64,000 bases of DNA from Elusimicrobiota bacterium. Lineage in GTDB: Bacteria; Elusimicrobiota; Elusimicrobia; UBA1565; UBA9628. Location of the stretch: NCBI GenBank assembly GCA_016209035.1, contig JACQWX010000005.1, forward strand, positions 6,688 to 70,687, in the 5' to 3' direction. A model generated the notes under the pieces. That model searched no databases. It saw only the letters and a list, made by a program, of their open reading frames with translations, and had not been told where the DNA came from. Below, one piece after another: positions 5,943 through 58,082 of this stretch (positions are counted from its first letter, which is position 1; every line of letters starts with the position of its first letter). The translations under genes were made by a program, and so were the position numbers.

Positions 5943-6716
5943 TCACCATTCGATGAACTGCGGCTGCTCCAGGGACTCTTTGAGCGCCTTGGCGGCGAGG
6001 AAAGCCTCGAAGGACCGGTTGAGGTCCGCGATCTCCTTGCGCTCGAAGTCTACGGGCAGCTTCTTGCCGAAGCGGACGATCACGGCCTCGTCGCAGGCGA
6101 TGCCGTAGGTCTCCTTGAAAGCCTGCGCGTAGGCCGCGACCTGCAGGGCATACTCGGCGTAGATGCCGTTCGAGGTCTTCCAGTCCAGGATGACGAGCTT
6201 CCCGTTGCGCCGGCCGAGCGCGTCCAGGCTGCCGCCGAACTTATGCTCGCGCGATGCGACCTTGGTATCCCCGAGCAGGAGCTCGATCTTCGTGGACTTC
6301 CACCAGTCTCTGAAGGCGCGGACCGGGGCCTCGATCTCGGGCGGGACCTTCCCCGGCTCCTCGCCCCGGATGATGCGGTCTATGAAGGCATGGGCCTGGG
6401 AGCCCAGGTCCGCGGCCTCGGTCTTGAGCTTGTCGGGCCGCTTCTTGGCCTCAATAAGGACCGACGAGATCCAGGCCTTGTTGAGCACGATCCTGGCGGA
6501 CCTGCGGCCGTCCAGGCGGGTCATGAGCGCGGCCTCGACCAAAGACAGAGCCTCGCGCTTGGCCCAGGGGACCAGGGCGGGCTTGTTGATGACCGAGAGC
6601 ATGCCGGTCACGCCCGGGTAGCGGTCTTGGCCGCCATTCCAGGCCACGTCGTAGAGGTGGCTGTTGCCCTCAACCACCAAGTCCACCTTGTAGAGCGGCT
6701 GAAGGCCTTCGGCCAT
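5943..6716 (-). CDS. PD-(D/E)xK phage-type exonuclease (RecB-nuclease/Cas4-like fold, no 4-Cys cluster)
   Basis: Motifs ILDWKTS and YALQVAAYAQAF (D...EXK plus QxxxY); probable start MAEGLQ. Confidence 0.6.
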   Translation of the reverse strand: MAEGLQPLYKVDLVVEGNSHLYDVAWNGGQDRYPGVTGMLSVINKPALVPWAKREALSLVEAALMTRLDGRRSARIVLNKAWISSVLIEAKKRPDKLKTEAADLGSQAHAFIDRIIRGEEPGKVPPEIEAPVRAFRDWWKSTKIELLLGDTKVASREHKFGGSLDALGRRNGKLVILDWKTSNGIYAEYALQVAAYAQAFKETYGIACDEAVIVRFGKKLPVDFERKEIADLNRSFEAFLAAKALKESLEQPQFIEW

Positions 6717-6717
6717 G

Positions 6718-7017
6718 CTATCCTCCCTTCCCATTCCGGAGCCTCTGGACCCGGAAGCCGAACTCGCCCACCTGCTTGATGAGGAACCCGGCCAGGAGTT
6801 TGGCCAGGTGCTCGCCGCACTCTGTCCCGCCCTCGATCACGCACACGGGCTTGGCCGCGGAGACGTCGTAGCCCGCCTCGAGCTTGAGCCGCGCCTTGCC
6901 GAAGATGATCTCTGTTTCCTTGACGGCCAGGGCGAGCACGGCCTTGAGAAGCCCGGGCTTTGAGCCCGGCCGGGTGAGGCTGAAGCGGTACGAGGTGCCT
7001 GCGGATGCCTGTTCCAT
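6718..7017 (-). CDS. hypothetical protein
   Basis: Protein-like composition from MEQASAGTSYRFSLTRPGSKPGLLKAV...; the overlapping 6608-7054 ORF is R-rich junk. Confidence 0.35.
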   Translation of the reverse strand: MEQASAGTSYRFSLTRPGSKPGLLKAVLALAVKETEIIFGKARLKLEAGYDVSAAKPVCVIEGGTECGEHLAKLLAGFLIKQVGEFGFRVQRLRNGKGG

Positions 7018-8783: not shown

Positions 8784-9398
8784 TCAGAGCCGTCGAATGA
8801 CGGCGATCACCTTTCCAGCGACCTCGAACGGTTGCGGGATTGGAGCGTACTTGGGATTGGCGGCTTCAAGGGAAAGTCGCCCGTCCTTCCGGCGGAGGGT
8901 CTTCACGGTGCCTTCGCCGTCCGGCGTAGCTGCGACCACGACATCCCCGGAGTCCGCAACCTTCTGCGGCTTCACGACCACGAGATCGCCTTCCAGAATC
9001 CCCAGGCCCACCATCGAGTCGCCCTTGACCCTGAGCAGGTAGGAATCCTTCGCCCGGCTGATCCTCTCGTCCAACCAGAGGATGTCTTCCACGTTCTCTT
9101 CCACCAAGTTGGGCCGGCCGGCTGGTACGCTTCCCAGTATTGGATGGCCCCGCGTTCCGATCCCTGCGATGCCAAACGTGGCGGGGGCGGCGGCCAACCG
9201 CAGGTCGCGAGCGCGGGAAGAGCCGCGCTCCAGCTTCTCCTTCTTGATGAGGACCCGGAGGTAGTAGGCCACGGTGCTAGATTTGATGCCGCCAAGGGCT
9301 GCCCCGATCTCGCGGACGGTCGGAGGGAAGCCGTGCTCCCTGGCGAAATCCGCGATAAAACGAAGAACCCGCTCCTGGCTCTTGGTCAGCGACTGCAC
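8784..9398 (-). CDS. lexA: LexA-family repressor (LexA winged-HTH plus S24 peptidase)
   Basis: VQSLTKSQERVLRFIADFAREHGFPPTVREIGAALG...; C-terminus LLRVKGDSMVGLGILEGDLVVVKPQ (Ser-Lys dyad region). Probable GTG start at 9398 (cac 9396-9398). Confidence 0.8.
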   Translation of the reverse strand: MQSLTKSQERVLRFIADFAREHGFPPTVREIGAALGGIKSSTVAYYLRVLIKKEKLERGSSRARDLRLAAAPATFGIAGIGTRGHPILGSVPAGRPNLVEENVEDILWLDERISRAKDSYLLRVKGDSMVGLGILEGDLVVVKPQKVADSGDVVVAATPDGEGTVKTLRRKDGRLSLEAANPKYAPIPQPFEVAGKVIAVIRRL

Positions 9399-9404
9399 AT
9401 GAGC

Positions 9405-9433
9405 AGTATAGCTTACAAACGTTAGATAGTCAA
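9405..9433 (-). promoter_or_regulatory. sigma70-like promoter of the lexA-like gene (TTGACT-17-TATACT); the -10 ends 7 nt from the GTG, implying a leaderless mRNA
   Basis: Reverse strand reads TTGACTatctaacgtttgtaagcTATACTgctcatGTG. Confidence 0.45.
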
Positions 9434-9436
9434 GTG

Positions 9437-9448
9437 GAACAAAATTTC
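9437..9448. promoter_or_regulatory. candidate LexA (Cheo-box-like) operator GAAC-N4-TTTC between divergent -35 elements
   Basis: GGAACAAAATTTCG; one mismatch from the palindrome GAAC-N4-GTTC. Confidence 0.3.
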
Positions 9449-9450
9449 GC

Positions 9451-9480
9451 TTGACAAGAAGCAAATGGTGGGGCTATAAT
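9451..9480 (+). promoter_or_regulatory. sigma70 promoter TTGACA-18-TATAAT divergent from lexA
   Basis: cgcTTGACAagaagcaaatggtggggcTATAATaaa. Confidence 0.5.
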
Positions 9481-9486
9481 AAACTT

Positions 9487-9549
9487 AGAATCTGAACTGA
9501 AGAACGACTAGACCTTACTTTGCCTAGCCCCCGTTTGGGGGCTTTTTTT
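9487..9549 (+). ncRNA. candidate ~60-nt small RNA (promoter-to-terminator unit with no ORF)
   Basis: Starts about 7 nt after the TATAAT and ends at the intrinsic terminator 9527-9549. No plausible ORF inside. Confidence 0.35.
9527..9549 (+). terminator. rho-independent terminator GCCCCCgtttGGGGGC plus T7
   Basis: 6-bp GC stem, 4-nt loop, TTTTTTT run. The T-run overlaps the stop codon of the convergent NYN gene. Confidence 0.6.
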
Positions 9550-10351
9550 ATGGCAGGTATCCGAGGCTCTTGGCCGTGGCCTCGTCCAGGTGGGTGACCG
9601 GAAGCCGTCCTCGATTAGGAACATCCTGTTCCCGCTTGACCAAAACGCCCTCCCGTTCCAGTTGGCCAATCGCGTCTCGCTTATCCTTCGCCGTTCCGGG
9701 GATTGCCTGTCTCTTGTCTTGTGCCCAACTGTCAATCAATTTGAAAGTCCAGTACTTCAGTGGCGCAGGGCCCTTGTGGACCATTGCCACAATCATCTTC
9801 CGGACTTCCAAGGGGTCGGCCGCTACAACCCGGGGGACTTCAACGGGGTCTTGAGGTTCCCCAGTGGCTGCCACGAGGTCTGCGGCCATGCTCCCCGGCA
9901 CTCCGATGGCGATGACGCGTTGGCCGAATTGAAAGCGAAGAAGCGTTACCAGCTTGACATAGTCGCGGTCCCCTGCAACGAGGAGAAATATTTTCTTTTC
10001 ACCATTCTTATCCGCATCTCTAGCCTGCATCACTGCATCCAGAGCAAGAACCATGTCAGCCGCATTCTTTACTCTCTCTATTGGTTTCCCGCCCGGGCCT
10101 GGTTTGGTGGTCCGCTTGACGGTCACGTTTATCGCTTCTATCCCGGCGACATCAAGCCGCCGGCGAAGTTCGGGCGGATGTTCACTGAAGTCGGCGTATG
10201 CTCTCATCACAGATGGGCGGCCATATTTCATAGCCTTGCTCACCAAGGCACCGAAATCGGGTTCCTGGCCGTGTAGATTAAGGAGGCTGTATCGAAGGTT
10301 CTCGAAGTCGATGAACATTGCGACGAACGTTTCTTTTTTCTCTTCTGGCAC
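9548..10351 (-). CDS. NYN-domain (LabA/YacP-like) protein
   Basis: N-terminus FVAMFIDFENLRYS and ...LLVAGDRDYVKLV (NYN/PIN-like). Confidence 0.7.
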   Translation of the reverse strand: MPEEKKETFVAMFIDFENLRYSLLNLHGQEPDFGALVSKAMKYGRPSVMRAYADFSEHPPELRRRLDVAGIEAINVTVKRTTKPGPGGKPIERVKNAADMVLALDAVMQARDADKNGEKKIFLLVAGDRDYVKLVTLLRFQFGQRVIAIGVPGSMAADLVAATGEPQDPVEVPRVVAADPLEVRKMIVAMVHKGPAPLKYWTFKLIDSWAQDKRQAIPGTAKDKRDAIGQLEREGVLVKREQDVPNRGRLPVTHLDEATAKSLGYLP

Positions 10352-10556
10352 AGGGACTTCCTCCTGAAATTACCTTGTGAAGTTCAATGAGAACTTCATT
10401 AAGGTATTTTACCACAATCCACGCCTCGCACATTTGTAATTTCTGCGTCGAATCCTAGTTGACGTGTCTCTCCGGCTTTCGCCGTTTCCGCACCGCATCT
10501 TCCGACTTGAGCGACTCGGGGGGAGGAAGGTAGGCTGTGGTCTGAGGTGCTGCGCC

Positions 10557-10859
10557 ATGATGCGAAGCGAACCGAAAGAAAGGATCACCGTCGGGGCGGC
10601 GAAGGCGCTACTGGCCCGGGCCAAGCAGGCCTACGAGGTCGGAGACGTCCTCACGGCCCACAGGCTGGCGGTCAAGGCGTTGCTCTGGGCCAACGACTGC
10701 CTGCATTCGCTCCAGTTGAGGAAGGCGGCGTTCAGGGACAACACCCTGTACGTCAGGAAACTCGGGCTGGGGCCGAAGGGGAAGGGCTGGAGCGTGACCG
10801 GCGCGGCCCGGGACGGCAAGTCCCTGGTGTGGACCCGGCCGGCGCGCAAGCCTCGGTAA
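10557..10859 (+). CDS. hypothetical basic protein
   Basis: MMRSEPKERITVGAAKALLARAKQAYEVGDVLTAHRLAVKALLWANDCLHSLQLRK...; protein-like composition. Confidence 0.35.
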   Translation: MMRSEPKERITVGAAKALLARAKQAYEVGDVLTAHRLAVKALLWANDCLHSLQLRKAAFRDNTLYVRKLGLGPKGKGWSVTGAARDGKSLVWTRPARKPR

Positions 10860-10916
10860 TTCGCAAGCCTTCGCCATTCTTGGCCGCCTCCTGCGTCGGT
10901 ATGGGCAGGGGGCGGC

Positions 10917-11159
10917 ATGGACTACCTGCTCAAGGACCCGGACGAGATGTCGCCAGGGGAGCGGCTGGATGCTCTGGCCGAGGTCCTGGCTGAGGGTTTC
11001 GTCTACCTGGCCGCAAACGGACTCCTGGACGACGTGCTCGGGAAAGTGGCCGAAGCGGGGCAGGGGGAATCCGCGAAGAAGGCCGCGGAATCGCCTTGCT
11101 TTCCAGCCGAACACCGTCTATCCTTCCTTCCTGACAAGGGAGGTGGACCGAGCGAATGA
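10917..11159 (+). CDS. small acidic protein translationally coupled (ATGA) to the serine recombinase; candidate recombination directionality factor
   Basis: MDYLLKDPDEMSPGERLDALAEVLAEGFVYLAANGLLDDVLGKVAEAG...; its stop overlaps the integrase ATG. Confidence 0.4.
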   Translation: MDYLLKDPDEMSPGERLDALAEVLAEGFVYLAANGLLDDVLGKVAEAGQGESAKKAAESPCFPAEHRLSFLPDKGGGPSE

Positions 11160-12985
11160 GCACGAACAACGAGTCCGGGAACGGGAACGGCAAGGCGGGG
11201 CCGGTCTGGATCGCGGTCTACACGCGCAAGTCGAACGACGAGAACCTCAATATCGAGGTGACGTCCATCGACAACCAGAAGGCCTGCTGCCGCAGCTACA
11301 TCGAAATCCAGAAGCAGAAGGGCTGGCGGGAGTACCCCGAGACCTTCGACGACCCGGCCCAGTCGGGCAAGAGCCTGGAGCGGCCGGCCATGAAGCGCAT
11401 CCTGCAGCGCATCCAGGAGGGCAAGGTCCAGGGCGTCATCGTCTACAAGCTCGACCGCCTGACGCGCAACTCAAGGGATTTCCACGGCCTGCTGGAGCTC
11501 TTCGAGAAGCACGGCGTGGCCTTCATCTCGGCCACGGAGTCCATTGACACGAAGAGCCCGCAGGGCAGGCTCATGACCGCCATCATGGTCCAGTTCGCCC
11601 AGTACGACCGCGAGCTGGACCAGGAGAGGTCCAGGGATACGCACCTCGCCCGGGCGCGCAAAGGGCTTTGGTGCGCGGGCCTGCCTCCCCTGGGGTACGA
11701 CATCAAGGACAAGCTCCTGGTGGTCAACCCGCAGGAGGCGGAGCTTGTGCGCGAGATTTTCGGGCTCTACCTCAGGCACAAGTCCACCTTGGTCGTGGCC
11801 AAGGAGCTCAACCGCCTGAATTACCGGCGCAAGACCTACAAGGCGCAGGACGGGAGACTCTTGGGCGGCAAGCCATTCGACCCGGACACGGTCTGCGGGA
11901 TTCTGCGGCGCAAGGTCTACATCGGGATCATCACGAACGGGAGAAGCGGCCAGGAGTTCCCGGGCCTGCACACGCCCCTGGTGAGCCCCCGGGTGTTCGA
12001 GAAGGTCCAGGCCATCCTGGCCGGCCACCGCCTGCGCGAGGAGGCGACGCAGTACGCCAACAACAAGCACGGCTTCCTGCTCAAGGGCCTGGTCCGCTGC
12101 GGCGAGTGCGACGCGGCCATGGTCGGGTTCGTGCAGCCGAAGAAGGACAGGCGCTATCGCTACTACCGCTGCATCGGCAGGGACAATGGCCGGCGCTCCT
12201 TCTGCCCGGTCAAGTGCATCGGGGCGGACAAGATCGAGGAATTCGTGATAGAGAAGCTGGCAGTCATCGGCAGCGACCGCCCGTTCCTGGAGAGGGTGGT
12301 CGCCAAGGTCTCGAAGGAGTCCAAGAGCAAGATCCGGCCCATGAAGCGGGAGATACGGCGAATCGAGGAGCGGATTCGCGCGACCCGGCGGGAGACGCAG
12401 AACCTGCTGAACATGGTCAAGTCCGGCGGGTCTTCCCAGGAGGCCTCGGCTGAGATCAAGCGGTTGGAGGACGCCAAGCGGGAGTTGGAGGCCCGCTCGG
12501 CCGGGCTACAGGCGCAGGTCAGCCAGCGCCAGAGGGTGGTCTACGACGTGGACGCCATCGAGGGCGCGCTGCGCCGCTTCGCCAGGTTCATCTACCGGAT
12601 GCCGCGGGCCTTGCAGGTGCTGGTGTTCCGCATCCTGGTCAAACGGGTCGTTCTGCACCGGAACAAGATATCGGTGGAAATCCACGAGCTGCCTATAGGC
12701 GCTCTGGAGATGGTCATGGACAAGAGGCTCTTGGAGGCCCCCAGGGGCCTGGGCCACTGGAAGAACAACGGGGCGAACACGGGCCAGGAGGATGCTGCGG
12801 CGGCGGGTGTCGCGGGCAACGGCGGGCCGGCTGCGGGGGAACAGGCAGGGGCGGGGGACCGGGACGCGGCGGATTCGCCCATAAAAGGGCCAGTCCTCCG
12901 CCAACTCGCCACCGGAACACCGGTTTGTGAATTGGGGGAGGACTGGCGGGGTCAACGGGATTTGAACCCGCGGTCTCTGCCTTGA
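11156..12985 (+). CDS. large serine recombinase (integrase)
   Basis: N-terminus VWIAVYTRKSNDENLNIEVTSIDNQK...YKLDRLTRNSRDF (resolvase catalytic domain); recombinase domain; zinc ribbon CGECDAAM...YYRC; coiled coil. The low-complexity tail overlaps tRNA-Asp. Confidence 0.85.
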   Translation: MSTNNESGNGNGKAGPVWIAVYTRKSNDENLNIEVTSIDNQKACCRSYIEIQKQKGWREYPETFDDPAQSGKSLERPAMKRILQRIQEGKVQGVIVYKLDRLTRNSRDFHGLLELFEKHGVAFISATESIDTKSPQGRLMTAIMVQFAQYDRELDQERSRDTHLARARKGLWCAGLPPLGYDIKDKLLVVNPQEAELVREIFGLYLRHKSTLVVAKELNRLNYRRKTYKAQDGRLLGGKPFDPDTVCGILRRKVYIGIITNGRSGQEFPGLHTPLVSPRVFEKVQAILAGHRLREEATQYANNKHGFLLKGLVRCGECDAAMVGFVQPKKDRRYRYYRCIGRDNGRRSFCPVKCIGADKIEEFVIEKLAVIGSDRPFLERVVAKVSKESKSKIRPMKREIRRIEERIRATRRETQNLLNMVKSGGSSQEASAEIKRLEDAKRELEARSAGLQAQVSQRQRVVYDVDAIEGALRRFARFIYRMPRALQVLVFRILVKRVVLHRNKISVEIHELPIGALEMVMDKRLLEAPRGLGHWKNNGANTGQEDAAAAGVAGNGGPAAGEQAGAGDRDAADSPIKGPVLRQLATGTPVCELGEDWRGQRDLNPRSLP

Positions 12986-13022
12986 CAGGGCAGCGTGTTA
13001 GACCAGGCTACACCATGACCCC
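12944..13022 (-). tRNA. tRNA-Asp (anticodon GUC)
   Basis: Reverse complement is GGGGTCATGGTGTAGCCTGGTCTAACACGCTGCCCTGTCAAGGCAGAGACCGCGGGTTCAAATCCCGTTGACCCCGCCA. Cloverleaf checked by hand: 7-bp acceptor, anticodon loop CU-GUC-AA, T-loop TTCAAAT, encoded CCA. Confidence 0.85.
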
Positions 13023-25411: not shown

Positions 25412-28400
25412 ATGGGCAAGAAAGGTTGGGTGATGGACTTGGTCATCGGGCTCCTCCTGAGCCTTTTCGTGGCGGCCTGCTACCTGCTTCCTCCGGTCCT
25501 GCCGTTCATCGAAGCGCTCGAGCTCAAGTCGTTCGACATGCGCTCCACCTGGAGGCAGACCGCGGAACCTTCCCGCGAGATCGTCCTGGTGTCCATCGAC
25601 GATTCCGCGTTGGCGCAGGTCGGGCGCTGGCCCTGGCCCAGGTGGCGCATCGCGGCCCTGGTGGACAAGCTCTCCGGGGCGGGCTCCAAGGTCATCGGCC
25701 TCAACATCCTGCTCTCCGAGGAGGAGCAGAACGAGGGTTTGAAGGAGATCCAGAGGCTCCAGTCCCAGTACGAGGCGTTCGTCGCGTCCCGCAACATCGT
25801 CGAGAGGGGGGTCGCCTTCAGCGCGGAGTTCTCGTCCGCCGCGGTCCGGCTCGACACGGACTCTCGCCTGCTGGCCTCCATCCAAGGGGCAGGGAACGTG
25901 GTCCTGCCCATGTTCTTCGATCTTGGCGGGCTGGCCAAGCCCGAGCCGCTGCCGGCCGCGGTCTCGAGCTCGGTGGTGACCTACGCGGTGGTGCAGGGCT
26001 CCCAGGAATCCGAGATTCCGGACGGGAGCAAGGCCACCTACCCCATCGTCAGGCTCGCCGAGGCCGCGGCGGGCGTGGGGCACGTGAACGTCTACAGCGA
26101 CATCGACGGCTCGGTCCGGCGCGAGATCCCGGTCGTCAAGTACGGCGAGAGCTACTACCCGTCCTACGCCCTGAGGCTGATCATGGCCTACATGGGGCTG
26201 CCCACGACGGACGCGGTCTTCACCCCCGGGGTGAGGCTGCAGGCGGGCAAACTCGAGGTCCCGCTCGACTCGTCCAACGGGATGCTCGTCTCGTTCGTGG
26301 GCCCGGTGGGGACCTTCCAGTCCTACTCCTATCGGGAGGTGATGAAGGAGGATTTTCCGACGGACACCTTCAAGGGGAAGATCGTCATCGTCGGCCTCAC
26401 CGCCGCCGGGGTGGGGACCCTCTACGTCACGCCCGCGGCCCCTGCCCTCCCTTCCATCGAGCTGACCGCCAACGTCATCGAGAACATCCTCAACCGCAGG
26501 TTCCTGACCAGGCCGCCGTGGGCCGCGCGGGCCGAGCTCGGGCTCCTGGGGCTCGTCGCCCTGTTCCTGATGGTCGTCTACCCGAGGCTCAAGGCCTTGT
26601 GGGGCAACCTCCTGGCCCTCGTGCTCCTGATCTGCATCCCGACCGGCGGCTTCTTCCTCTTCCAGCAGGGCCTCTGGCTCAAGGTCACCTACCCGGTGAC
26701 GCTCCTGTTCTGCGGGTGTCTGGTCAGCCTCGCGCGCAGGCTCATCGGAACCGAGAAGGGCAAGGAGCTCGTGGAGGCCTCGGCCATCGAGCAGGCCCGG
26801 ATGCTGGGACTCTCCTTCCAGGGGCAGGGCATGCTTGACATGGCCTTCGACAAGTTCCGCCAGTGTCCCGTCGACGACAACCTCAAGGACGCCCTCTACA
26901 ACCTGGCCCTGGACTTCGAGCGCAAGCGCCAGTACGCCAAGGCCGTCTCGGTGATGGAGCACATCGCGGTCACGGACCCCGCGTACAAGGACATTCCGGA
27001 GAAGATGAAGCTCCTTAAGGCGGCCAGCGAAGGCGCGGTCTTCGGCGGCGTGGGCCAGTCGAAGAAGGAGGGCACGGTCCTCATCACCGGCGGGGCGACC
27101 AAGCCCACCCTGGGCCGCTACGAGATCGAGAAGGAGCTCGGGCGCGGCGCCATGGGCGTCGTCTACCTCGGCCGCGACCCCAAGATCAACCGCATGGTCG
27201 CCATCAAGACCATGATGATGGAGGAGGGCACCGACGCCGCGGCCGCCAAGGAGATCAAGGAGCGCTTCTTCCGCGAGGCCGAGTCCGCGGGCACCCTCAA
27301 CCACCCCAACATCATCCGCATCTTCGACGCGGGCGAGGAATCCGACGTATGCTACATCGCGATGGAGCTCCTCGAGGGCAACGACCTGACGCAGTTCACG
27401 GCCAAGGACAAGCTCCTGCCGCCCGTCCAGACCATGGAGTACGTCGCCCTGGTGGCGGACGCCCTGGACTTCGCCCATGCCCAGGGCATCGTGCACCGCG
27501 ACATCAAGCCGGCCAACATCATGCTGCTCAAGGACGGCACCATCCGCGTGGCGGATTTCGGCATCGCGCGCATCACCGCCTCCTCCAAGACCGCGACCGG
27601 CACGATCATGGGCACCCCGTCCTACATGAGCCCGGAGCAGGTGGCGGGCAAGAAGGTGGACGGCCGGTCCGACCTGTTCTCGCTCACCGTCGCGCTCTAT
27701 GAGTTCCTGACCGGCGAGAAGCCTTTCAAGGGCGGCGAGGGGATCGGCACGCTCCTCTTCCAGATCGCCAACGACCCCCATCCCGACCCCGTGACCATCA
27801 GGGGTGACCTGCCTCCCGGCATCAAGCCGATCATCGACAAGGGGCTGGCCAAGAACCCGGATCAGCGCTATGCCCGGGGTTCCCTCATGGCCGCGGATTT
27901 GCGCGCGCTGATCGCGGCGATCAAGTCAGGAAAGCCGACCGGGCCCGCTGACCCGGCCTCCGGCCGGGCGCCCCCGGCCCCCGCGGTCCAGGCTCCGCAG
28001 GCAGTGCCGCCGCTCCCTCCGCCCGAGGCCCCGCTGACGCAGGTCGTGGAGACGCCGCCGTCAGCCCCGATCAAGATTCCCGCGTTCGTGGGCGAGGACT
28101 CGTCTTCCGGATTGGCGCATCTTCTTGCGGCCGCGTCGGCCGCGCCGGCTCGGTCGCCCAGCGAGGTGACGGATCCGGGCATTCCCCTGGCTCCTGCCCG
28201 AGAAAGGAAGGCTGCGGAAATCCCGTCTCTAGAGCCCCCTGTCGAGGCGGCTCCGACGCCTGAGCCGGTGGTGGAAGCTCCGGCGCCCGAGCCCGCGCTT
28301 GAGCCTGCTCCCGCGGTCGAGCCGGCCCCGGAGCCCGGTGCCCCGGCGTATTCGGCCGCGGAAGAGGAGACCATCGTGATGGCGCCCGGCAGCATCCCGG

Positions 28401-28792
28401 TGATCTCGCCGGAGCTGATGAACGCGCCTGCGCCTGAGCCCGCCCCGGCGGTCGAGCCGGCCCCGGAGGCGCCCCCGACGGTCGAGATGCCCCCGGTCTG
28501 CGAGCCTGCGGGTGAAGGCGAATTCAAGATCGCGTTGGAGCCCCGTGCGACTCTCAAGCCGGCTTCGAAGCCGGAAACAGCCCCCACCGCCCTGCCGGGG
28601 CCGGTGCCTCCTCCGCCTTCTGCCGGTGAGCAGCCGTCGTCTGATTCGGAGTTCAAGATCGTGCTGGAGCCGCGGGCGACCATCAAGTCCGAGCCCGAAG
28701 CGGGCCCGCCGGCGCCGTCCTCGGACAAGACCGTCGTGCTTCCGCCGGGGTGGAAGCCGCCCGGGACGCCCGCGGAGGAGAAACCGGCATGA
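25412..28792 (+). CDS. CHASE2 extracellular sensor fused to a Hanks-type Ser/Thr protein kinase with a Pro/Ala/Glu-rich repetitive tail
   Basis: CHASE2 region VSIDDSALAQVGRWPWPR; TM segments; kinase motifs GRGAMGVVYLG...VAIK, HRDIKPANIML, DFGIA, GTPSYMSPE. Tail repeats: APAPEPA(L)EPAPAVEPAPE twice and EFKI(A/V)LEPRAT(L/I)K twice. Start could also be 25433. Confidence 0.8.
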   Translation: MGKKGWVMDLVIGLLLSLFVAACYLLPPVLPFIEALELKSFDMRSTWRQTAEPSREIVLVSIDDSALAQVGRWPWPRWRIAALVDKLSGAGSKVIGLNILLSEEEQNEGLKEIQRLQSQYEAFVASRNIVERGVAFSAEFSSAAVRLDTDSRLLASIQGAGNVVLPMFFDLGGLAKPEPLPAAVSSSVVTYAVVQGSQESEIPDGSKATYPIVRLAEAAAGVGHVNVYSDIDGSVRREIPVVKYGESYYPSYALRLIMAYMGLPTTDAVFTPGVRLQAGKLEVPLDSSNGMLVSFVGPVGTFQSYSYREVMKEDFPTDTFKGKIVIVGLTAAGVGTLYVTPAAPALPSIELTANVIENILNRRFLTRPPWAARAELGLLGLVALFLMVVYPRLKALWGNLLALVLLICIPTGGFFLFQQGLWLKVTYPVTLLFCGCLVSLARRLIGTEKGKELVEASAIEQARMLGLSFQGQGMLDMAFDKFRQCPVDDNLKDALYNLALDFERKRQYAKAVSVMEHIAVTDPAYKDIPEKMKLLKAASEGAVFGGVGQSKKEGTVLITGGATKPTLGRYEIEKELGRGAMGVVYLGRDPKINRMVAIKTMMMEEGTDAAAAKEIKERFFREAESAGTLNHPNIIRIFDAGEESDVCYIAMELLEGNDLTQFTAKDKLLPPVQTMEYVALVADALDFAHAQGIVHRDIKPANIMLLKDGTIRVADFGIARITASSKTATGTIMGTPSYMSPEQVAGKKVDGRSDLFSLTVALYEFLTGEKPFKGGEGIGTLLFQIANDPHPDPVTIRGDLPPGIKPIIDKGLAKNPDQRYARGSLMAADLRALIAAIKSGKPTGPADPASGRAPPAPAVQAPQAVPPLPPPEAPLTQVVETPPSAPIKIPAFVGEDSSSGLAHLLAAASAAPARSPSEVTDPGIPLAPARERKAAEIPSLEPPVEAAPTPEPVVEAPAPEPALEPAPAVEPAPEPGAPAYSAAEEETIVMAPGSIPVISPELMNAPAPEPAPAVEPAPEAPPTVEMPPVCEPAGEGEFKIALEPRATLKPASKPETAPTALPGPVPPPPSAGEQPSSDSEFKIVLEPRATIKSEPEAGPPAPSSDKTVVLPPGWKPPGTPAEEKPA

Positions 28793-31177: not shown

Positions 31178-31344
31178 TAATGCAGCAACATCCCGAACGC
31201 GCGAGGCGCCGTTTGCGGGCCTTGGGGTTGGGTCCGCGGCCGCGGCGTCATGCGTAGCGCGCTAGGGCGATAAAGGCAAACCCGCTGCAAGGCGGGGGCG
31301 CAAAGCCAGACTCCCTTCGGGGAGGGTCAGGTTGCCGAACAAAA

Positions 31345-38095: not shown

Positions 38096-38920
38096 ATGTC
38101 TCTGCGAGCCCCGAAGGGATTCATCGACGAGTCGGACCCCAAGGTCTGCCAGATCGGGCACCCGGCTCCGCCCTGGCTGGTCAACTACGCCGACCTCATG
38201 ACCGAGATGGTCTGCTTCTTCGTGATCCTCTACGCCCTCTCGGCCGCGCTCAACAAGGATGTGCAGGACGCGAAGTCCAGGGTCGAGAAGATGATGCAGA
38301 AGGGCCAGATGAAGGGCGAGGTGAAGATCGACCAGGAGGGCTTGAAGATATCCCTGGAGGAGGAGGGCAAGATGTCCTTCTTTGAGAGCGGCTCCGCGGA
38401 CCTCACCCCCGGCATGAAGGAGATCCTCGTCAAGCTCTCCCCCATCCTGATGAAGCTGACGGGCAAGCAGGACATCATTATCGAGGGGCACACGGACAAC
38501 AAGTACATCTCCAACGACTACTTCGATTCCAATTGGGAGCTCTCGACGGCCCGCGCCACCAATGTCGTGCGCACCCTGATCGACAAGCACGGGTTCCCGC
38601 CCAACAAAATGGCGGCCATGGGCTACGGCGAGTTCCGGCCCCAGGCGCCGAACGACTCGCCGGACAACATGGCCAAGAACCGCAGGGTCGTCTTCTTCGT
38701 GAAGAACGTTCCGTTCAAGGCCGAGGAACCCAAGCCGGAGAAGGCTCCGCCCATGACGCCCAAGGAACGCGTCGGGCGTCAGGACGGGCCGGCTGCCGCC
38801 GGCCCGCCAGGGGAGGCCCCGGCCGCCGACGTCGTTCCGGAAGGCCAGGGCGCCGCTCCCGCCGGTGAGGCGAGCCCTGAGGAGGCCCCGCCCATGGCGC
38901 CCGAGGAGTCACCGCAATGA
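38096..38920 (+). CDS. motB: MotB-family stator protein with OmpA-like peptidoglycan-binding domain
   Basis: PWLVNYADLMTEMVCFFVILYA (MotB TM with conserved Asp in YADLMT); OmpA-like IIIEGHTDNKYISNDYFDSNWELSTARATNV...GYGEFRP. Confidence 0.8.
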   Translation: MSLRAPKGFIDESDPKVCQIGHPAPPWLVNYADLMTEMVCFFVILYALSAALNKDVQDAKSRVEKMMQKGQMKGEVKIDQEGLKISLEEEGKMSFFESGSADLTPGMKEILVKLSPILMKLTGKQDIIIEGHTDNKYISNDYFDSNWELSTARATNVVRTLIDKHGFPPNKMAAMGYGEFRPQAPNDSPDNMAKNRRVVFFVKNVPFKAEEPKPEKAPPMTPKERVGRQDGPAAAGPPGEAPAADVVPEGQGAAPAGEASPEEAPPMAPEESPQ

Positions 38921-39756
38921 ACGCACCACCTGATGGTCGTCGCCGGCCGCCGACGCCCTTTCTGAGGGCGGCCGGGACCTGGCCCTCCAATATCCTGGAA
39001 GGCCAGGGCCTCCGGCCTCGACCGCGTCGATGGCTGGGCGCGACGGCTTGCGCCGCCGCCGCCGTCTTGTGCGTGGCGGCGGCCGGCTGCACCGGGATGA
39101 GGATGGGCCGGGGGGCGAAGAAGGTCGTCAGCGAGGACTTCGCCGAAGGGCGCGTGGTGGACGTGTCGATCACGGAGAGGATCACCGGGAACCGCGAGAT
39201 GCTCTTCATGTCCATGCCCAGGAAGACCCTCTTCCTCGACGGCTACATCCAGGGCGTCATCACCGACTACCTGGACAATCCGGTGCAGGGCGTGGTGGTC
39301 CGGGCCGTGGCCGTGGGCGAGGGGGCTCAGAAGGAGGAGACCGGGGAGCGGCGGTCGGGCTTCGCCGGCAGCTCCTTCGACCCCGGGGTGAGCGACACCA
39401 ACGGCTTCTACCGCATCCGGTTCAGCCTGCCCATTATCGACGGCGTCGTCGACGTCCGTGGCCGCGTCCTCTACAGCCCGGGCTGGGAGCAGGAGAGGGA
39501 CAACCTGGGCAAGGCCTACGAGCCCCAGCAGAAGCAGAGCCAGTTCCGCGTCTACTACGAGCTCAAGCGCGCCCGCATCACCTTCACCGAGGGCATCCGC
39601 AAGACGGTCGTGGCGCCCGTCACCAGCGGTGCGCCGCCCAAGGCCGCCGCCCTGCCCAGCGCGGGCAAGCCCGCCGTGGAGAAGGCGCCGGGCGCCCCGG
39701 CGGAGGGAGGCGGCGATGAGGACCTCTTCAAAGGTTTCGGGTTCGAGGGTCCCTAA
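38917..39756 (+). CDS. lipoprotein (CarboxypepD_reg-like fold possible)
   Basis: Lipobox ...AAAVLCVAAAGC; TNGFYRIRFSLP; overlaps the motB stop. Confidence 0.5.
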   Translation: MNAPPDGRRRPPTPFLRAAGTWPSNILEGQGLRPRPRRWLGATACAAAAVLCVAAAGCTGMRMGRGAKKVVSEDFAEGRVVDVSITERITGNREMLFMSMPRKTLFLDGYIQGVITDYLDNPVQGVVVRAVAVGEGAQKEETGERRSGFAGSSFDPGVSDTNGFYRIRFSLPIIDGVVDVRGRVLYSPGWEQERDNLGKAYEPQQKQSQFRVYYELKRARITFTEGIRKTVVAPVTSGAPPKAAALPSAGKPAVEKAPGAPAEGGGDEDLFKGFGFEGP

Positions 39757-39757
39757 T

Positions 39758-39863
39758 GGTGTCAGGCATCAAGTTATCAAGTTGTTGGCCTTGTTCCGGA
39801 GGCTGACATCCGCGCCCATAACTTGATAGACTTGAAGAACTTGATAACTTGATGCCTGACACC
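39758..39863. repeat. 26-bp perfect inverted repeat flanking a 54-nt loop; tandem 8-mer iterons ATCAAGTT/AACTTGAT (6 copies); AT-rich
   Basis: Left arm ggtgtcaggcATCAAGTTATCAAGTT (39758-39783). Right arm AACTTGATAACTTGATgcctgacacc (39838-39863). The loop holds AACTTGATagACTTGAag. Confidence 0.7.
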
Positions 39864-40331: not shown

Positions 40332-41392
40332 TGGGGCGCAAGCTCCGCGTCGCGGTCCTGTTCGGCGGCCGATCCTCCGAGCACGAGGTGTCGCTGGCCT
40401 CGGCCAAGACCGTCATGGGCGGTCTCGACCCGGCGCGCTACGAGGTCAGGCCGATCCGCATCGACCGCGAGGGCCGGTGGCTGCTGGAGGACTCCGGCTC
40501 GAAGACCGCGGGGCTCTTGCCTTTCCGGGGCCTCGAGAGCCGCAGGGGCGACGGGTCTTCGCGGCGCTCTCTCCTGGCTGTGGACGTCGTTTTCCCGGTC
40601 CTTCACGGCCCCATGGGGGAGGACGGCACGGTGCAGGGCCTCCTCGAGGTCGCGAGGATCCCCTACGTGGGCTGCGGCGTGCTGGCCTCGGCGGTCGGGA
40701 TGGACAAGGACGTCGCCAAGAGGCTGGCCCTGCAGGCGGGCGTCCCGGTCCTGCCGCACATCCTTTTGCGCTCGCCCGGGGAACTGTCTGGCAAGAGGGC
40801 TCTTTTGCGGGGAATGAAGGTCCCGGTCTTCGTCAAGCCCGGGTGCCTGGGCTCCTCGGTGGGGGTGCGCAAGGTCAAAGATTTCTCCGAGCTCGGCGCC
40901 GCGGTCCGCTACGCCTTCCGCTTCGACACCAAGGTCATCGTGGAGCAGGGCGTCGACGGCCAGGAGATCTGCTGCGCGGTCCTGGGCAAGCCCGGGGACC
41001 TGGAGACCTCGGTCTGCGGCGAGGTCGTGGTCACCGGCGGTCACGAGTTCTTCGACTACTCCGCCAAGTACACGGACAAGGCGGGCCACGAACTGCTCAT
41101 CCCGGCGAGGCTCGCGCACGAGGAATCCCGCTTCATCCGCGGCCTCTCCGAGCGCGTCTTCGAGGCGTTCGACGGCAACGGCATGGCCCGGGTGGATTTT
41201 TTCATGGACCGCCGCTCGCGGCGGGCCTTCTTCGGCGAGATCAATACGATCCCGGGCTTCACGGACCAGAGCCTCTACCCCGCGCTCTTCCAGGAGTCCG
41301 GGCTCACCATCCCGAAGATCCTCGACCGCCTGATCGCGCTCGCCCTCGAGCGCAGCCGCCGGCGAGGGGCCTTGAGAACCTCGCGGCGCTAA
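40331..41392 (+). CDS. ddl: D-alanine--D-alanine ligase
   Basis: VAVLFGGRSSEHEVSLASA...VFPVLHGPMGEDGTVQGLLE...; ATP-grasp pattern; GTG start overlapping the upstream stop. Confidence 0.85.
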   Translation: MGRKLRVAVLFGGRSSEHEVSLASAKTVMGGLDPARYEVRPIRIDREGRWLLEDSGSKTAGLLPFRGLESRRGDGSSRRSLLAVDVVFPVLHGPMGEDGTVQGLLEVARIPYVGCGVLASAVGMDKDVAKRLALQAGVPVLPHILLRSPGELSGKRALLRGMKVPVFVKPGCLGSSVGVRKVKDFSELGAAVRYAFRFDTKVIVEQGVDGQEICCAVLGKPGDLETSVCGEVVVTGGHEFFDYSAKYTDKAGHELLIPARLAHEESRFIRGLSERVFEAFDGNGMARVDFFMDRRSRRAFFGEINTIPGFTDQSLYPALFQESGLTIPKILDRLIALALERSRRRGALRTSRR

Positions 41393-41651
41393 GGGCTCGT
41401 TAAGAATTAAGTGACACACTTCGCCGAGGGCGATTTTGGCGCGAGCCGAGGAGTGAGGAGCATAGCTGGCTATGTGAGCGACGAACGACGAAGGCGCAGC
41501 CCAAAAGCGCCCCGGGCCTTCGGGGAGACCCGCTGTCGGCCGATTTCGTCGTTGCTCCTCGGTCCCATGGCTCGCCATGCTCCCTCGTCGCGCCTAGAAA
41601 TCGTCTCGACATCGGGTCTCCGAAGTGTGTCACTTAATTCTTAACGAGCCC
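41393..41651. repeat. ~260-bp nested-palindromic MITE-like repeat element, copy 1, with 31-bp perfect terminal inverted repeats
   Basis: TIRs gggctcgttaagaattaagtgacacacttcg (41393-41423) and its exact reverse complement (41621-41651). Fills the ddl/TPR-gene intergenic gap. Core is homologous to 57045-57244. Confidence 0.65.
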
Positions 41652-41657
41652 TAAGGT

Positions 41658-42965
41658 TCAGCGCTTCCTTCTAATCAGCAGGCGGACGGTGTCCGCGCCG
41701 ACATCCTCCACCTTGGCGTCCCACTGGCCGTCGATAGGGAACTCAAGGCCGGCGGCGTAGACGCCCTTGCGGACCAGGGTCCCGTCGGGGTCGAAGCGGA
41801 CCTGGACCGGCGGGATCCTCCTGAGCTCGATGGAAACCAGGCCGGGCCCCGAGGGCTGCGCGATGAACCGGTAGTTCGGCGTGGTGAAGAGGGCCCAGAG
41901 GAGCTTCCTGCCGCCGAGGCGGATGGTGAACGGGAAGTTGTCCGGGTCGGCCAGGGTCTCCATGGGCAGGGGCTCGAGGTGCTTGGAAGAGGTCCACTTG
42001 ATCGCTATCTTGGAGTAGGCGCCCCTGACGGAGGTCGTAGACGGGCCGACCTGCCAGCCCGATGCCGTCTTCGAGGAGGTGGCCATGAGCATGGTCCGTC
42101 CGACGGGCTCGCGCTCGAGGAACGGGACGAGGGGGGAGAGGATGAGGCCCACGGTCTTGAGAGGCGCCAGGTAGAGCTTGCCCACCTTCTCCAAGTTGCG
42201 CTCCCAGTTCCTCCTGCCCTCCTTGTCGCTCAGGATGAGGAGGACGTCCTCGGCCTCCTGGAGCTCGGGCTTGAGGTCCAGGGCCTGCTTGCGGAGGGTC
42301 TCGACCTCGTCGGCGGGCAGGCCTTTGGCCGCGAGCGCCAGGGCCAGGAGGCGCCTAGCCTCGGCGTAGTCGGGGTCGATCCCCAGGGCCTTCCTGAGGG
42401 ATGCGACCGCGTCATCGAAGCGCCCCTGGTCGTAGCGGACGGCGCCGATCTCGAAGTGCGCCTCCGCGTAGGCGGCGCTCAAGTCCGCGGCCGTCTGGAA
42501 CTGCCTGAGGGCGGCGTCGGTCCGGCCGGCGTGCAGGAGCATGAGCCCGTAGTTGAGATGGATGTGGGGGTCGCTCTTCCTGCTCTTGGCCGCGGCCCTG
42601 CGCAAGGCCGCCAGCTCCGCGGGGTCTCCCGGGGGAGTGAGGGTCCGCAGGTAGTACCAGGTCTGGGGGAAGGACCGGTCGAGCTTGGCGGAAAGATTCA
42701 ACTCGGCCAAGGCCTGCCGCGTCTCGCCTGCGTGGGCCAGGCACAGGCCCAGCGCGTAGCGCAGGAGCGCGTGGTTCGGCGTCTTCTTCAGCTCGGCCCT
42801 GAGGGGCTCGATGGCGCGTTCGAGCTGGTCCTCCTTGAGGAGGTTCCACGCGACGTCCACGGCGGACGGCTGGGCCTGGGCCTGCGGCCCAGGCCCAGGG
42901 GCCGCAGGCCAGGCTGCCCAGGCGGAGGCCGACACGACCGAAATGACTAGGAAGGTTCTCTTCAT
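41658..42965 (-). CDS. secreted TPR-repeat protein
   Basis: Signal peptide MKRTFLVISVVSASAWA; TPR-like repeats. Confidence 0.65.
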   Translation of the reverse strand: MKRTFLVISVVSASAWAAWPAAPGPGPQAQAQPSAVDVAWNLLKEDQLERAIEPLRAELKKTPNHALLRYALGLCLAHAGETRQALAELNLSAKLDRSFPQTWYYLRTLTPPGDPAELAALRRAAAKSRKSDPHIHLNYGLMLLHAGRTDAALRQFQTAADLSAAYAEAHFEIGAVRYDQGRFDDAVASLRKALGIDPDYAEARRLLALALAAKGLPADEVETLRKQALDLKPELQEAEDVLLILSDKEGRRNWERNLEKVGKLYLAPLKTVGLILSPLVPFLEREPVGRTMLMATSSKTASGWQVGPSTTSVRGAYSKIAIKWTSSKHLEPLPMETLADPDNFPFTIRLGGRKLLWALFTTPNYRFIAQPSGPGLVSIELRRIPPVQVRFDPDGTLVRKGVYAAGLEFPIDGQWDAKVEDVGADTVRLLIRRKR

Positions 42966-56029: not shown

Positions 56030-56944
56030 ATGGGAGACGACCCGGATTCGCCGGACCGGCTGGATGGCCTTCTGCAGGAGATGAAGCGGCGGATCCAGGC
56101 GGTCCAGCTGGATCCTCCCGGGACCGCCGCCAAGCGCCCATCCTCGCCGGGAGCCCTTTCCACGGACGCATCCTCCGAGGGGGGGCCCGCGGGCGGTAGG
56201 GCGCCGCCGGGGGCGCCACGGCGGCGCCGGCTTCTCGTCTGGGCGGGAAGCGCGCTCTTGGCGGCGTCCGCCTTCGGCGCCTGGCGGCTCGGCTGGCGGG
56301 GGCGGGAGCATCGTATCCCTTGCGCCCACCCCAGCGCTCTTGCCTGGCAAGGGGATTCCCTGTGGATATCCGATTGGCATGACCAGGCGGTTTATCGGAT
56401 GAGCAAGACCCTTCTCGGTCTGCGCATGCGCCGACGGTATTCCCTGAAGGGCTCCCACATCATGGGCATGGCCGTGGCCGAGGATGCCCTGTTCGCCGTC
56501 GACTCGTGGAGTCGGCAGATCCAGCGCCGGCGTTTGGACGATCAGCTCAGCCTTGAGCGGGCTTGGCCCAGCCCGGGCCCCAATCCTTCGGCCCTCTGTT
56601 TCGATGGGAAGTACTTGTGGTCCGTCGACAAGGACCGGCGGCTCCTCTATCAGCATGCCCTCGATGAGCGGCTGACGGTGCTCAACTCCTACCCCTTGGA
56701 ACACGCCCCGATCGGGATCTCTCTGAGAAAGGGATGCTTCTGGACCGTGGACGAGAGGGCCCGCACGTTCTATCTCCTCAGGGCGACCCAGCAGACGCAA
56801 GCCGGAGCCTTCGGCTTGGCGGAGCTCGACGGCGTGTCCGCCCCGCTCTCGTCTTTCTCTTGGCGCGGGGACAGTCTCTGGATCGGCTTCGATGGTCTGG
56901 CTCGACTCATCGAGCGTCCCAAGCGGCGCTTGGGCCGGCGATAG
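56030..56944 (+). CDS. membrane-anchored protein with four W-x-GDSLW-like repeats (small beta-propeller-like)
   Basis: WQGDSLWISDW, FDGKYLWSVDKD, KGCFWTVDER, WRGDSLWIGFDG. Confidence 0.5.
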   Translation: MGDDPDSPDRLDGLLQEMKRRIQAVQLDPPGTAAKRPSSPGALSTDASSEGGPAGGRAPPGAPRRRRLLVWAGSALLAASAFGAWRLGWRGREHRIPCAHPSALAWQGDSLWISDWHDQAVYRMSKTLLGLRMRRRYSLKGSHIMGMAVAEDALFAVDSWSRQIQRRRLDDQLSLERAWPSPGPNPSALCFDGKYLWSVDKDRRLLYQHALDERLTVLNSYPLEHAPIGISLRKGCFWTVDERARTFYLLRATQQTQAGAFGLAELDGVSAPLSSFSWRGDSLWIGFDGLARLIERPKRRLGRR

Positions 56945-57011
56945 GGGCGGGGGTCCCGGGCGGCGCGGCCTGCGGTCCTTGACAACGTAACAGCCATGGG
57001 GTAGCCTAGTA

Positions 57012-57277
57012 AGGGCCTGTCAAACAATAACATGGTTAATTTGGAGGGCCGAGCTTGAGATGATTTCGAGGCGCGAGGAGGGAACATGGCGGGCCATGTG
57101 ACCGACGAGCAACGAAGAAATCGGCCAAGATCGGCCCTCCCCGAAGGGGCCGGGCGCTTTTGGGCTGCGCCTGCGTCGCTCGTCACTCGCATACGTTCAG
57201 TATTCTCGCTCCTCGCTCCTTGGCTCGCTCCAAAATCGCCTCGGCCAAATTGACCATGTTATTGTTTGACAGGCCCT
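57012..57277. repeat. MITE-like nested-palindromic repeat, copy 2, with 33-bp terminal inverted repeats (1 mismatch)
   Basis: agggcctgtcaaacaataacatggttaatttgg (57012-57044) against ccaaattgaccatgttattgtttgacaggccct (57245-57277). Core ~80% identical to the reverse complement of copy 1; ends 4 nt before the ATG of the next gene. Confidence 0.65.
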
Positions 57278-57281
57278 AAAC

Positions 57282-58082
57282 ATGGACCCGAGGCAGGTCG
57301 ACCCATCAGAGATCGAATCCATCAACAGCCTTGAGACCGCCAGGATCGCTTTGCGTTGGGCGTTGGAGCGCATCCGGCTCCTCGAACAAGGCGGGGCCCG
57401 CAAGGGGGGCGACTCCGTCGCCGCGGCCTACTACCGGCGGATGGATGCTCTGATCTCTGATTTCACCCATCGGAGGCTCGATGTGGGGAAGCTTCTTGAG
57501 AGAGAGGCGGAGGTCGAGGTCCTCGAGCAGCGGCTCCGCGCCCGCCGACTGGAGCTTGAACACGACGGGCTGGATAGGACCACGCGCCTGGAGGAGCAGT
57601 ATCAGCGCCTAAGGAGGGAGCTCGAGACCAGGCTGCGGAGGGAGACCGAGGCTCTCTGGAAGGATTTTTCGGCGGAGTATGATGCGTGGCGCGCGCGCGT
57701 GGCGGAGCAAGAGCGAACCTCCCGCGCGGCGGGCATGGCCCTGGAGGCCCAGAAGAAGGCCTGGATCGAAGAGGCCGTGAAGTTCGACCAGGCAGCGCAG
57801 ACGGAGCGCGGCCGCAGCATGGAGTCCTTGGCCCAGTTTCGCCATGCCACGGAGGACCTGCTGGCCCGACGCCTCGGTGACCTCGAGGCCGAGATGAAGC
57901 GGCGCGAGGAGGCGTGGAGGGCCGAGGAAGAGCGGTTGCGGTCCAGGGACCGGGAGTGGCATGACCGCCAGTCCCGGCTCGAGCACGACTATCTGAGCAA
58001 GTCCGCGGAGCTCGAGGATCTCAAGGCTGAGATGCTCCGGGCCATGCGGGGCAAAGGCAAGGAAGAGCACCCTCCGCCCTGA
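57282..58082 (+). CDS. coiled-coil protein
   Basis: 266 aa, R/E/L-rich heptads. Confidence 0.55.
   Translation: MDPRQVDPSEIESINSLETARIALRWALERIRLLEQGGARKGGDSVAAAYYRRMDALISDFTHRRLDVGKLLEREAEVEVLEQRLRARRLELEHDGLDRTTRLEEQYQRLRRELETRLRRETEALWKDFSAEYDAWRARVAEQERTSRAAGMALEAQKKAWIEEAVKFDQAAQTERGRSMESLAQFRHATEDLLARRLGDLEAEMKRREEAWRAEEERLRSRDREWHDRQSRLEHDYLSKSAELEDLKAEMLRAMRGKGKEEHPPP

Follow-up and report, generated by a model that had tools for sequence, protein, structure and literature searches.

BIMEs/REP and pneumococcal BOX are mosaic repeats built from reusable hairpin units, with REP being moved, if at all, by RAYT. Insertion sequences of the IS630 family target TA, mostly within CTAG, and members of the IS427 group generate duplications of 2–4 bp. 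The Correia elements (NEMIS) of Neisseria are small, non-coding, multicopy, intergenic sequences that are bounded by terminal inverted repeats (TIRs) of 24–26 bp and show a duplication at a TA-containing site (PMC2229807); their transcripts form a long terminal stem that RNase III cleaves, with altered expression of adjacent genes (PMC2229807). Target-site duplications of 3 bp are made by PIF/Harbinger transposons (PMC2213677), and the IS1031 group of the IS5 family recognises three nucleotides (PMC2516522). Here, we investigated a repeated element of 264 bp in a 64,000-nucleotide stretch of DNA (the window) from an Elusimicrobiota bacterium (GenBank assembly GCA_016209035.1, contig JACQWX010000005.1). 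Its TIRs, target duplication, small size and dispersed copies together lead us to interpret it, with a probability of roughly 0.8, as a MITE (miniature inverted-repeat transposable element), i.e., a non-autonomous DNA transposon.

The initial annotation of the window had described the element as the second copy, in opposite orientation, of a dispersed repeat family whose other copy lies near 41.4 kb, with interiors about 80% identical and termini that differ, and these claims held. The cores of the two copies match in reverse complement over 154 nt at 83%, blastn aligns them at 81% over 211 nt (E = 4e-50), every sequence block quoted at the time was found, and the TIRs share only 50% identity in their first 30 nt, most of the common positions lying within the first 18 nt. 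Two motifs from the core, a 19-mer and a 27-mer, occur exactly twice each in the window, against 0.06 and 0.00 expected, so the similarity is not one of GC-rich low complexity. To this picture we add the target duplication, the exchange of TIR modules, a predicted three-way-junction fold and a distribution across phyla.

Anatomy and dispersal of the element

The copy under study, numbered copy 2, occupies 57013–57276 and lies between a TAA at 57010–57012 and a TAA at 57277–57279 (both from direct reading and a scan of 3-bp flanks), with the ATG of an open reading frame (ORF) of 266 aa at 57282. The arms of 33 nt that had been drawn earlier (57012–57044 and 57245–57277) are 97% complementary across a 200-nt spacer and stand as such, while their outermost bases do not belong to the TIRs, being part of the direct TAA duplication. 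The TIRs proper, obtained from an inverted-repeat search and, on the left, from pair counts, belong to class B (GGGCCTGTCAAACAATAACATGG...) and provide on the plus strand the 5' strand (57013–57044) and the 3' strand (57245–57276) of a helix termed P1. Between them lie an L arm that represents a hairpin unit in sense orientation (57043–57140, plus strand; 106.4 bits with the covariance model R1 described below, and pair counts), the linker CCGAAGG that joins the two arms (57141–57147, plus strand; alignment and RNAalifold), and an R arm that is a diverged inverted copy of the unit (57148–57246, minus strand; R1 minus-strand match of 50.8 bits and the counts of helix 5).

Copy 1 (41393–41651, minus strand) carries class A TIRs (GGGCTCGTTAAGAATTAAGTG...) and was delimited by inverted repeats (35-nt arms at 41389–41423 and 41621–41655, 97% complementary), R1 scores and the flank scan. 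Its L arm (41524–41621, minus strand) and R arm (41424–41516) score 109.1 and 43.2 bits with R1. The flanking TAA triplets are found at 41390–41392, where the TAA also serves a D-Ala-D-Ala ligase gene as stop codon, and at 41652–41654, and the stop codon of a convergent TPR gene (41658–42965, minus strand) follows 3 nt past the latter.

Perfect pairs of TAA or TTA flank 12 of the 18 full Elusimicrobia copies, and five others are off by one base. A script seeking TWA, then GG...CC, then the same TWA matched solely these elements, and since the host genomes have 64–70% GC, such flanks cannot be chance. TA adjoins the terminus on one side only in these copies, and a 3-bp duplication fits both sides. 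At the copy 2 locus the element would have landed at, and duplicated, a TAA that preceded the start codon (ATG) of the 266-aa ORF by 2 nt; the empty target site before insertion would read ...TAGCCTAGTAAACATGG.... Full copies measure 259–269 bp, and every one has TIRs, which share only the outermost bases GGGC..GT.AA across the family. All reading frames of the element are shifted by indels of 1–5 nt between copies, ORFs running across it occur in single copies, and the variation tracks base pairing rather than codons.

The exact core 19-mer was found at 44 genome loci, about 20 of them in six high-GC Elusimicrobia metagenome-assembled genomes (MAGs), and the 24 matches outside Elusimicrobia are due to chance, with the exception of locus L007 discussed below. 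In an Anaerolineaceae MAG (L006, ~1120–1165) the 19-mer, as GGCGC-TTTTGGGCT-GCGCC, tips a perfect 17-bp hairpin (gatgaggtgggtGGCGC...GCGCCacccacctcatc) that is terminator-like and has no match to the L-arm model; this occurrence is probably a coincidence. A metagenome scan with the class B TIR pattern returned five copies, of which four were new (three from GWA2_69_24, whose deposit is named Ga0154315, and one from Ga0172379). In related genomes the family is genome-wide, as had been expected from the two copies of the window: GWA2_69_24 has at least 10 copies and REEB4 at least nine. Three low-GC contigs from the same scan contain a TIR-like 22-mer with no adjoining transposase, and viral contigs scanned with the 19-mer and both TIR patterns yielded one chance match and otherwise nothing.

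The genes on either side of the copies are unrelated from site to site, the copies occur in both orientations, and all arrangements of flanking genes are represented. Full copies, deletion forms of 225 bp (L008, L015 and L023), enlarged copies and fragments were obtained by BLAST and inspection, and solo arms occur at L007, L029 and L020; deletion forms, enlarged forms and solo arms are variants typical of transposon decay. Two enlarged copies of GWA2_69_24, L052b (L052 8616–8997, 382 bp) and L053 (2103–2428, 326 bp), hold extra pairs of mini-hairpins, e.g., CCCTGCCGG...CCGGCAGGG, inserted in the L arm's outer stem and, for L052b, in that of the R arm as well, which suggests a further layer of small, nested palindromic modules. 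An independent Logan assembly of the copy 2 locus breaks within the element, as assemblers break at repeats.

Two main TIR classes can be distinguished, class A beginning GGGCTCG(TT/CA)A... and class B beginning GGGCCTGTCAA... or GGCGCTGTCAAG..., with identities of mostly at least 67% within a class and 47–57% between the two; L036 represents a third type, and further types occur outside Elusimicrobia. Classes A and B coexist in the genome of the window as well as in GWA2_69_24. Copies L001 and L051, although of class B, have cores with 88–95% identity to those of class A in the GWA2-type group (four GWA2_69_24 copies and L004 from a close relative), and the cores of the window copies, 80% identical to each other, are no closer to any copy of their own class. 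Because the cores cluster by genome rather than by TIR class, ends and core are taken as separate, exchangeable modules that recombine. Conversion between dispersed copies or a rebuilding of the ends would both fit such an exchange.

Fold, hairpin unit and relatives in other phyla

Taken singly, both window copies give one long hairpin, with z near −10 for each strand. RNAalifold applied to a MAFFT alignment of 11 diverse copies returned a three-way junction composed of P1 (the TIRs), the L arm (columns 31–132), the linker and the R arm (columns 140–243), and the single-sequence minimum free energy folds of nine of the 11 copies give the same junction. The junction model leaves 97.9% of the alignment cells paired, with 49 pairs changed on both sides, compared to 81.4% and 30 pairs for a single rod and 34–44% and 3–11 pairs for slid controls. 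All of its helices are 92.9–100% paired, and double-sided changes number 8, 6, 7 and 5 in the main non-terminal helices, with one more in a sixth helix of two pairs. The rod was rejected as the conserved structure, being 67–88% paired beyond the TIR stem with few double-sided changes. As a single strand, i.e., as a transcript or as single-stranded DNA (ssDNA), the element is predicted to fold into the three-way junction, and covariance modelling likewise came out in favour of the conserved RNA structure that the initial annotation had raised. In 14 of 15 units the purine-rich strand forms a more stable fold than the complementary strand, and G·U exceeds A·C in the RNAalifold alignment (23 to 7 cells; 12 to 5 columns), which suggests that the L-arm sense strand is the one that folds.

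The L arm of copy 2 consists of an outer stem, a core of tandem G·A pairs (AGGCGCGAGGAG ... CGACGAGCAACG) and a hairpin at the apex. Invariant in the aligned L arms are G63-A64 and G66-A67 opposite A98-G97 and A95-G94, and between the G·A tandems lie covarying Watson–Crick pairs (65/96 as G-C, C-G or A-U; 69/92 as C-G or G-C). The linker of copy 2 reads C-GAA-G on the plus strand and C(UUCG)G on the complement, and its middle base is variable across the family, giving GNA or UNCG.

R1, the covariance model built from 12 L arms, scores 82–119 bits against every L arm and 22–81 bits against the reverse complement of every R arm; among chance loci nothing was significant, with one match at E about 1. 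The core is thus unit(+), linker, unit(−), with a single hairpin unit of ~100 nt making up both arms in inverted orientation to each other. The Elusimicrobia locus L029 reaches 35 bits with this model and the solo unit L007, from a Methylacidiphilales MAG, 42.8 bits. The latter (6702–6802, plus strand, DASZIP010000001, Verrucomicrobia) has no TIRs, lies in a divergent intergenic region and shows a perfect outer stem of 14 bp (TTTTGGGCTGCGCC/GGCGCAGCCCAAAA); it may be the appearance of the unit outside a transposon.

A pattern derived from the core matched the contig of a Mu-like phage (IMGVR_UViG_3300022695_000189) that encodes endolysin, holin, terminase, portal and a Mu-F-like protein and carries two full elements (L055, 3119–3386; L056, 5233–5499) between its late genes, sense to them. 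The right TIR of both copies holds GGAGG-N8-ATG, the start of the downstream gene, and both of these genes begin M-S-L; judged from this arrangement, the phage element would supply, or sequester, the ribosome-binding site and start codon of its downstream genes. A BLAST search of plasmids with the phage copy opened the way to full elements on a Citrobacter braakii plasmid, Azotobacter chroococcum plasmids, a Pseudomonas aeruginosa plasmid and a 1.8-Mb Halomonas replicon filed as plasmid, and to a more diverged copy of 311 bp on a Catenovulum plasmid. No match was returned by BLAST of the window copy against plasmids or of the phage copy against phages, and no copy by BLAST of the Citrobacter element against 5,426 E. 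coli genomes. TIR-like matches in Azospirillum were discarded as chance, since they fall within a permease gene.

The phage and proteobacterial relatives are 264–268 bp long, Catenovulum excepted, and each of them folds alone into the junction. Their stems are unrelated in sequence to those of the Elusimicrobia copies; a core AAGGC..GAGGAG ... CGACGAG.AACG is kept, and termini of the form GGG(C/T)CTGT persist in several lineages. A pooled, model-fitted alignment has 93.4% of cells paired (slid controls, 34–42%), and 30 of its 34 pairs show double-sided changes. Some lineages have CCCGAAGGG as linker and others the inverse, CCCTTCGGG or CCCTGCGGG, and the G·A core is kept by the L arm alone in Proteobacteria and the phage and by both arms in Elusimicrobia. 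The L arm is sense to the upstream gene in all five proteobacterial and phage copies with a clear upstream gene; for Elusimicrobia, a rough and noisy GC3-based ORF analysis gave no orientation bias. The proteobacterial relatives are flanked by CTA or TTA on the left and TAG on the right, which corresponds to a 2-bp TA duplication.

With Rfam 15 at gathering thresholds, the window yielded only two tRNAs and a c-di-GMP-I riboswitch, all located elsewhere than the element; 56900–57400 gave no match at E ≤ 10, and the phage copy gave only sub-threshold noise. The literature, searched by name and by TIR sequence, contained no description of the family. The fold is a well-supported candidate for a structured RNA or DNA motif that Rfam lacks.

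Since the stems drift and yet stay paired in every lineage, the folded single-stranded form would be under selection. Most likely the selected form would be a transcript, in which the compact fold would limit harm or modulate the flanking genes and may act in processing, stability or insulation; the evidence favours a role, or at least selection, at the transcript level. It is a more tentative possibility, to which we give limited credence, that the ~100-nt hairpin unit, whose outer stem can vary freely, is a functional cargo and the MITE its vehicle. The cargo could be a mobile structured RNA (protein-binding, processing or stabilising) or a cis-acting fold for propagation through an ssDNA stage, the latter of which would explain how three long helices remain paired while their sequences are replaced. 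If true, this would make the family a class of structured nucleic acids that spans phyla and travels on interchangeable transposon ends. The family also offers a natural system in which to ask what selection on a transposon's fold favours, namely mobility or being harmless or useful in the transcripts of the host.

Mobility and alternative explanations

Mobility of the proposed MITE rests on the target duplications and the dispersed copies, since no empty site was recovered, and no close orthologues of the genes flanking copy 2 are on record. A DDE transposase that recognises GGGYYYGT termini and is encoded outside the window would move the element in trans. Duplication of a 3-bp TNA or TWA target, as in IS5 and PIF/Harbinger, occurs in Elusimicrobia and is absent from the proteobacterial relatives; exact TA duplication, as in IS630 and Tc1/mariner, occurs in those relatives and is absent from Elusimicrobia, so one transposase type may not serve the whole family. 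The 3-bp TWA duplication, taken together with the three-nucleotide recognition of the IS1031 group, favours an IS5-family enzyme (IS1031- or IS427-like), which is our best guess for the most likely partner, and IS630 would be the alternative for the TA-duplicating lineages. The termini GGGCCTGT.../GGGTCTGTTGA... (GGGCC.GT and GG.T.TGTTGA) presumably resemble PIF-like and IS903 ends, and the IS903 ends (GGCTTTGTTGAATAAATC) would be similar to GGGTCTGTTGACG.

A search for TIR pairs that enclose a gene returned MITEs only, and neither the window nor ~230 kb of DNA from related Elusimicrobia yielded the transposase or TnpB gene that the initial annotation had envisaged. The low-GC islands of the window were considered as a source of transposase and rejected, as they correspond to a serine-recombinase element at tRNA-Asp and an ATPase gene. 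The former is a probable integrated element (8784–13022) at a tRNA-Asp gene (12944–13022, minus strand) that is overrun by the ORF of a putative large serine recombinase (609 aa, 11156–12985); a putative LexA-like repressor ORF (8784–9464) and a further ORF (9548–10351) lie nearby, and GC content is 51% at 9201–10700. The IS630-family transposases that adjoin the Citrobacter and Azotobacter copies were rejected as partners because their ends are unrelated. In Azotobacter chroococcum pAcX50f (L060, 1262–2716), a copy is inserted precisely at the TA that borders, on the right, an IS630-family element with a frameshift and TIRs GTGTTATGACAC..., and CTAG/TA targets are common to both.

Several observations weigh against a MITE moved by plain cut-and-paste and carrying a conserved junction. 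No autonomous element with matching TIRs turned up in the window, in the ~230 kb of Elusimicrobia loci or, by TIR BLAST, in the plasmid collection, which also contained no empty site for the P. aeruginosa copy. The duplication is 3 bp in Elusimicrobia and 2 bp, mostly in CTAG, in the proteobacterial relatives. The rod is 7–10 kcal/mol more stable than the junction for both window copies. The TIR arms are near-perfectly complementary even between very recent relatives (L004 and L018 versus L005), a pairing that selection on a 30-bp stem explains poorly and that hints at copying or correction between the arms, a process absent from the plain cut-and-paste model. All three long helices, the 30-bp terminal stem among them, keep perfect pairing even between very recent relatives.

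One alternative is a mobile element with a folded ssDNA intermediate that is handled by an HUH enzyme, a tyrosine recombinase or another non-DDE enzyme, the fold itself being the recombination substrate as in IS200/IS605 ends, integron attC or CTX-phage attP. Every helix, the 30-bp terminal stem included, pairs while drifting, even among close relatives; on its purine-rich strand the linker has the form C-GNA-G, in which each of the four bases occurs at N, and C-GNA-G is a very stable DNA mini-hairpin motif; and the linker is inverted in some lineages, as template switching in a hairpin would yield. Long TIRs and direct target duplications of 2–3 bp are, however, the signature of DDE cut-and-paste, and IS200/IS605 elements and attC sites, which are marked by subterminal hairpins or R/L boxes, have neither TIRs nor a target duplication. 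As no HUH or integrase gene is linked to any examined copy either, we regard this explanation as unlikely.

Provision of a promoter or leader for the coiled-coil gene downstream, which the initial annotation had raised, is very unlikely to be the main role of the element here. Copy 2 does end 5 nt before the ATG at 57282 (2 nt from the right TAA), class B TIRs bear an outward TTGACA 6 nt from their end, and the phage copies start their downstream genes from within the right TIR. However, the scan for sigma-70-like promoters in and around the element found no site at the threshold of the tool, the TTGACA is only 14 nt from the ATG, which leaves no room for a −10 box and a leader, and the last 20 nt of copy 2 have no Shine–Dalgarno sequence. 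Copy 1, moreover, is bracketed by the stop codons of two convergent genes, a setting that calls for no promoter. A putative host promoter, TTGACA-N17-TAGCCT (56979–57007, plus strand), was seen by eye, below the scan threshold, directly upstream of the insertion point. The element therefore seems more likely to split an existing putative promoter from the ATG and to add a folded leader; 264 nt of strongly folded sequence would now part the two. The spacing suggests that, before insertion, the ATG would have trailed the −10 box by ~7 nt, with a leaderless or very short-leader transcript. The downstream 266-aa protein has no Pfam match and no close orthologue. For annotation, the structured gap upstream of this ORF is best read as an insertion rather than a native regulatory leader. 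More generally, such elements break assemblies, occupy stop codons and leaders, and in the phage contain the start codon of the next gene together with its ribosome-binding site.

A structured non-coding RNA gene or cis-regulatory RNA, whose copies arise by duplication and whose "TIR" is only the closing helix, would account for the strong covariation in all helices with an invariant non-canonical core, for the better folding of the purine-rich strand in 14 of 15 units, for the Proteobacteria and phage copies in which the L arm alone keeps the core and is sense to the upstream gene (5/5), and for the solo unit in an intergenic region of the Verrucomicrobia MAG. We consider it improbable in view of the TAA/TTA or TA duplications around nearly every copy, the unrelated neighbours in both orientations and all arrangements, the deletion and insertion derivatives, the missing Rfam match, and the terminal bases that are fixed while the rest of the closing helix is free, as recognition by a transposase predicts. 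Chance or low-complexity GC-rich matching can practically be dismissed given the blastn result between the window copies, core motif counts that far exceed the shuffled expectation, and more than 25 other family members of the same architecture.

The window has several other features. A c-di-GMP-I riboswitch aptamer is found at 31265–31339 (plus strand; 55.6 bits against a gathering score of 35). A third, unrelated inverted repeat at 39758–39863, with 29-nt arms of 97% complementarity (GGTGTCAGGCATCAAGTTATCAAGTTGTT) and a 48-nt spacer, is placed between the stop of ORF 38917–39756 and the ddl-containing ORF; it has many AACTTGAT repeats, is AT-rich in a genome of 67% GC and shows no evident target duplication, and could be another small mobile or operator-like element. 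Tandem-like repeats at 28288–28498 would encode Pro/Ala/Glu-rich units (CGAGCCGGCCCCGGAG...).

Comparison with known systems

Like the present, probably non-coding element, Correia/NEMIS are small, intergenic and multicopy, with long TIRs and a target duplication. They are, however, simple stem-loops of 107–155 bp that are restricted to one genus and have conserved TIRs, whereas the present element forms a junction of ~265 bp with interchangeable TIR classes and a core shared across phyla; no sequence similarity between the two was seen. The TA that the proteobacterial relatives duplicate, mostly within CTAG, is the target of IS630. RUP of Streptococcus pneumoniae is one of the MITEs mobilised by IS630 and tends to insert into IS elements (PMC2229807), comparable to the family copy that sits on an IS630-flanking TA. 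Unlike RUP, the Elusimicrobia copies have 3-bp duplications, and the ends of the two neighbouring IS630 elements are unrelated. CIR of Caulobacter and Brucella also has a proposed RNA with two long arms and a linker that is conserved between genera (PMC2229807), but has neither TIRs nor a 5'–3' closing stem, while the present element has both, in addition to target duplications.

The 3-bp TAA/TTA duplication is shared with the eukaryotic Tourist-type MITEs and PIF/Harbinger transposons and, on the bacterial side, with the related IS5 family (IS1031, IS427). The family differs in that no IS5-family transposase with the present ends was found and in that the proteobacterial relatives duplicate TA only. 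We know of no Tourist-type MITE core that is conserved and covarying across phyla. BIMEs/REP and BOX resemble the present element in their modular hairpins (P1 frames, arms and the mini-hairpins of L052b and L053) and differ from it in having no long TIRs and no target duplications. Correia/NEMIS, RUP and CIR are the closest described systems, and none of them combines all present features. MITEs usually have conserved ends and disposable interiors, whereas the present family has this reversed, with a ~200-nt core of one size, one fold and one tandem G·A motif from Elusimicrobia to Gammaproteobacteria and a Mu-like phage.

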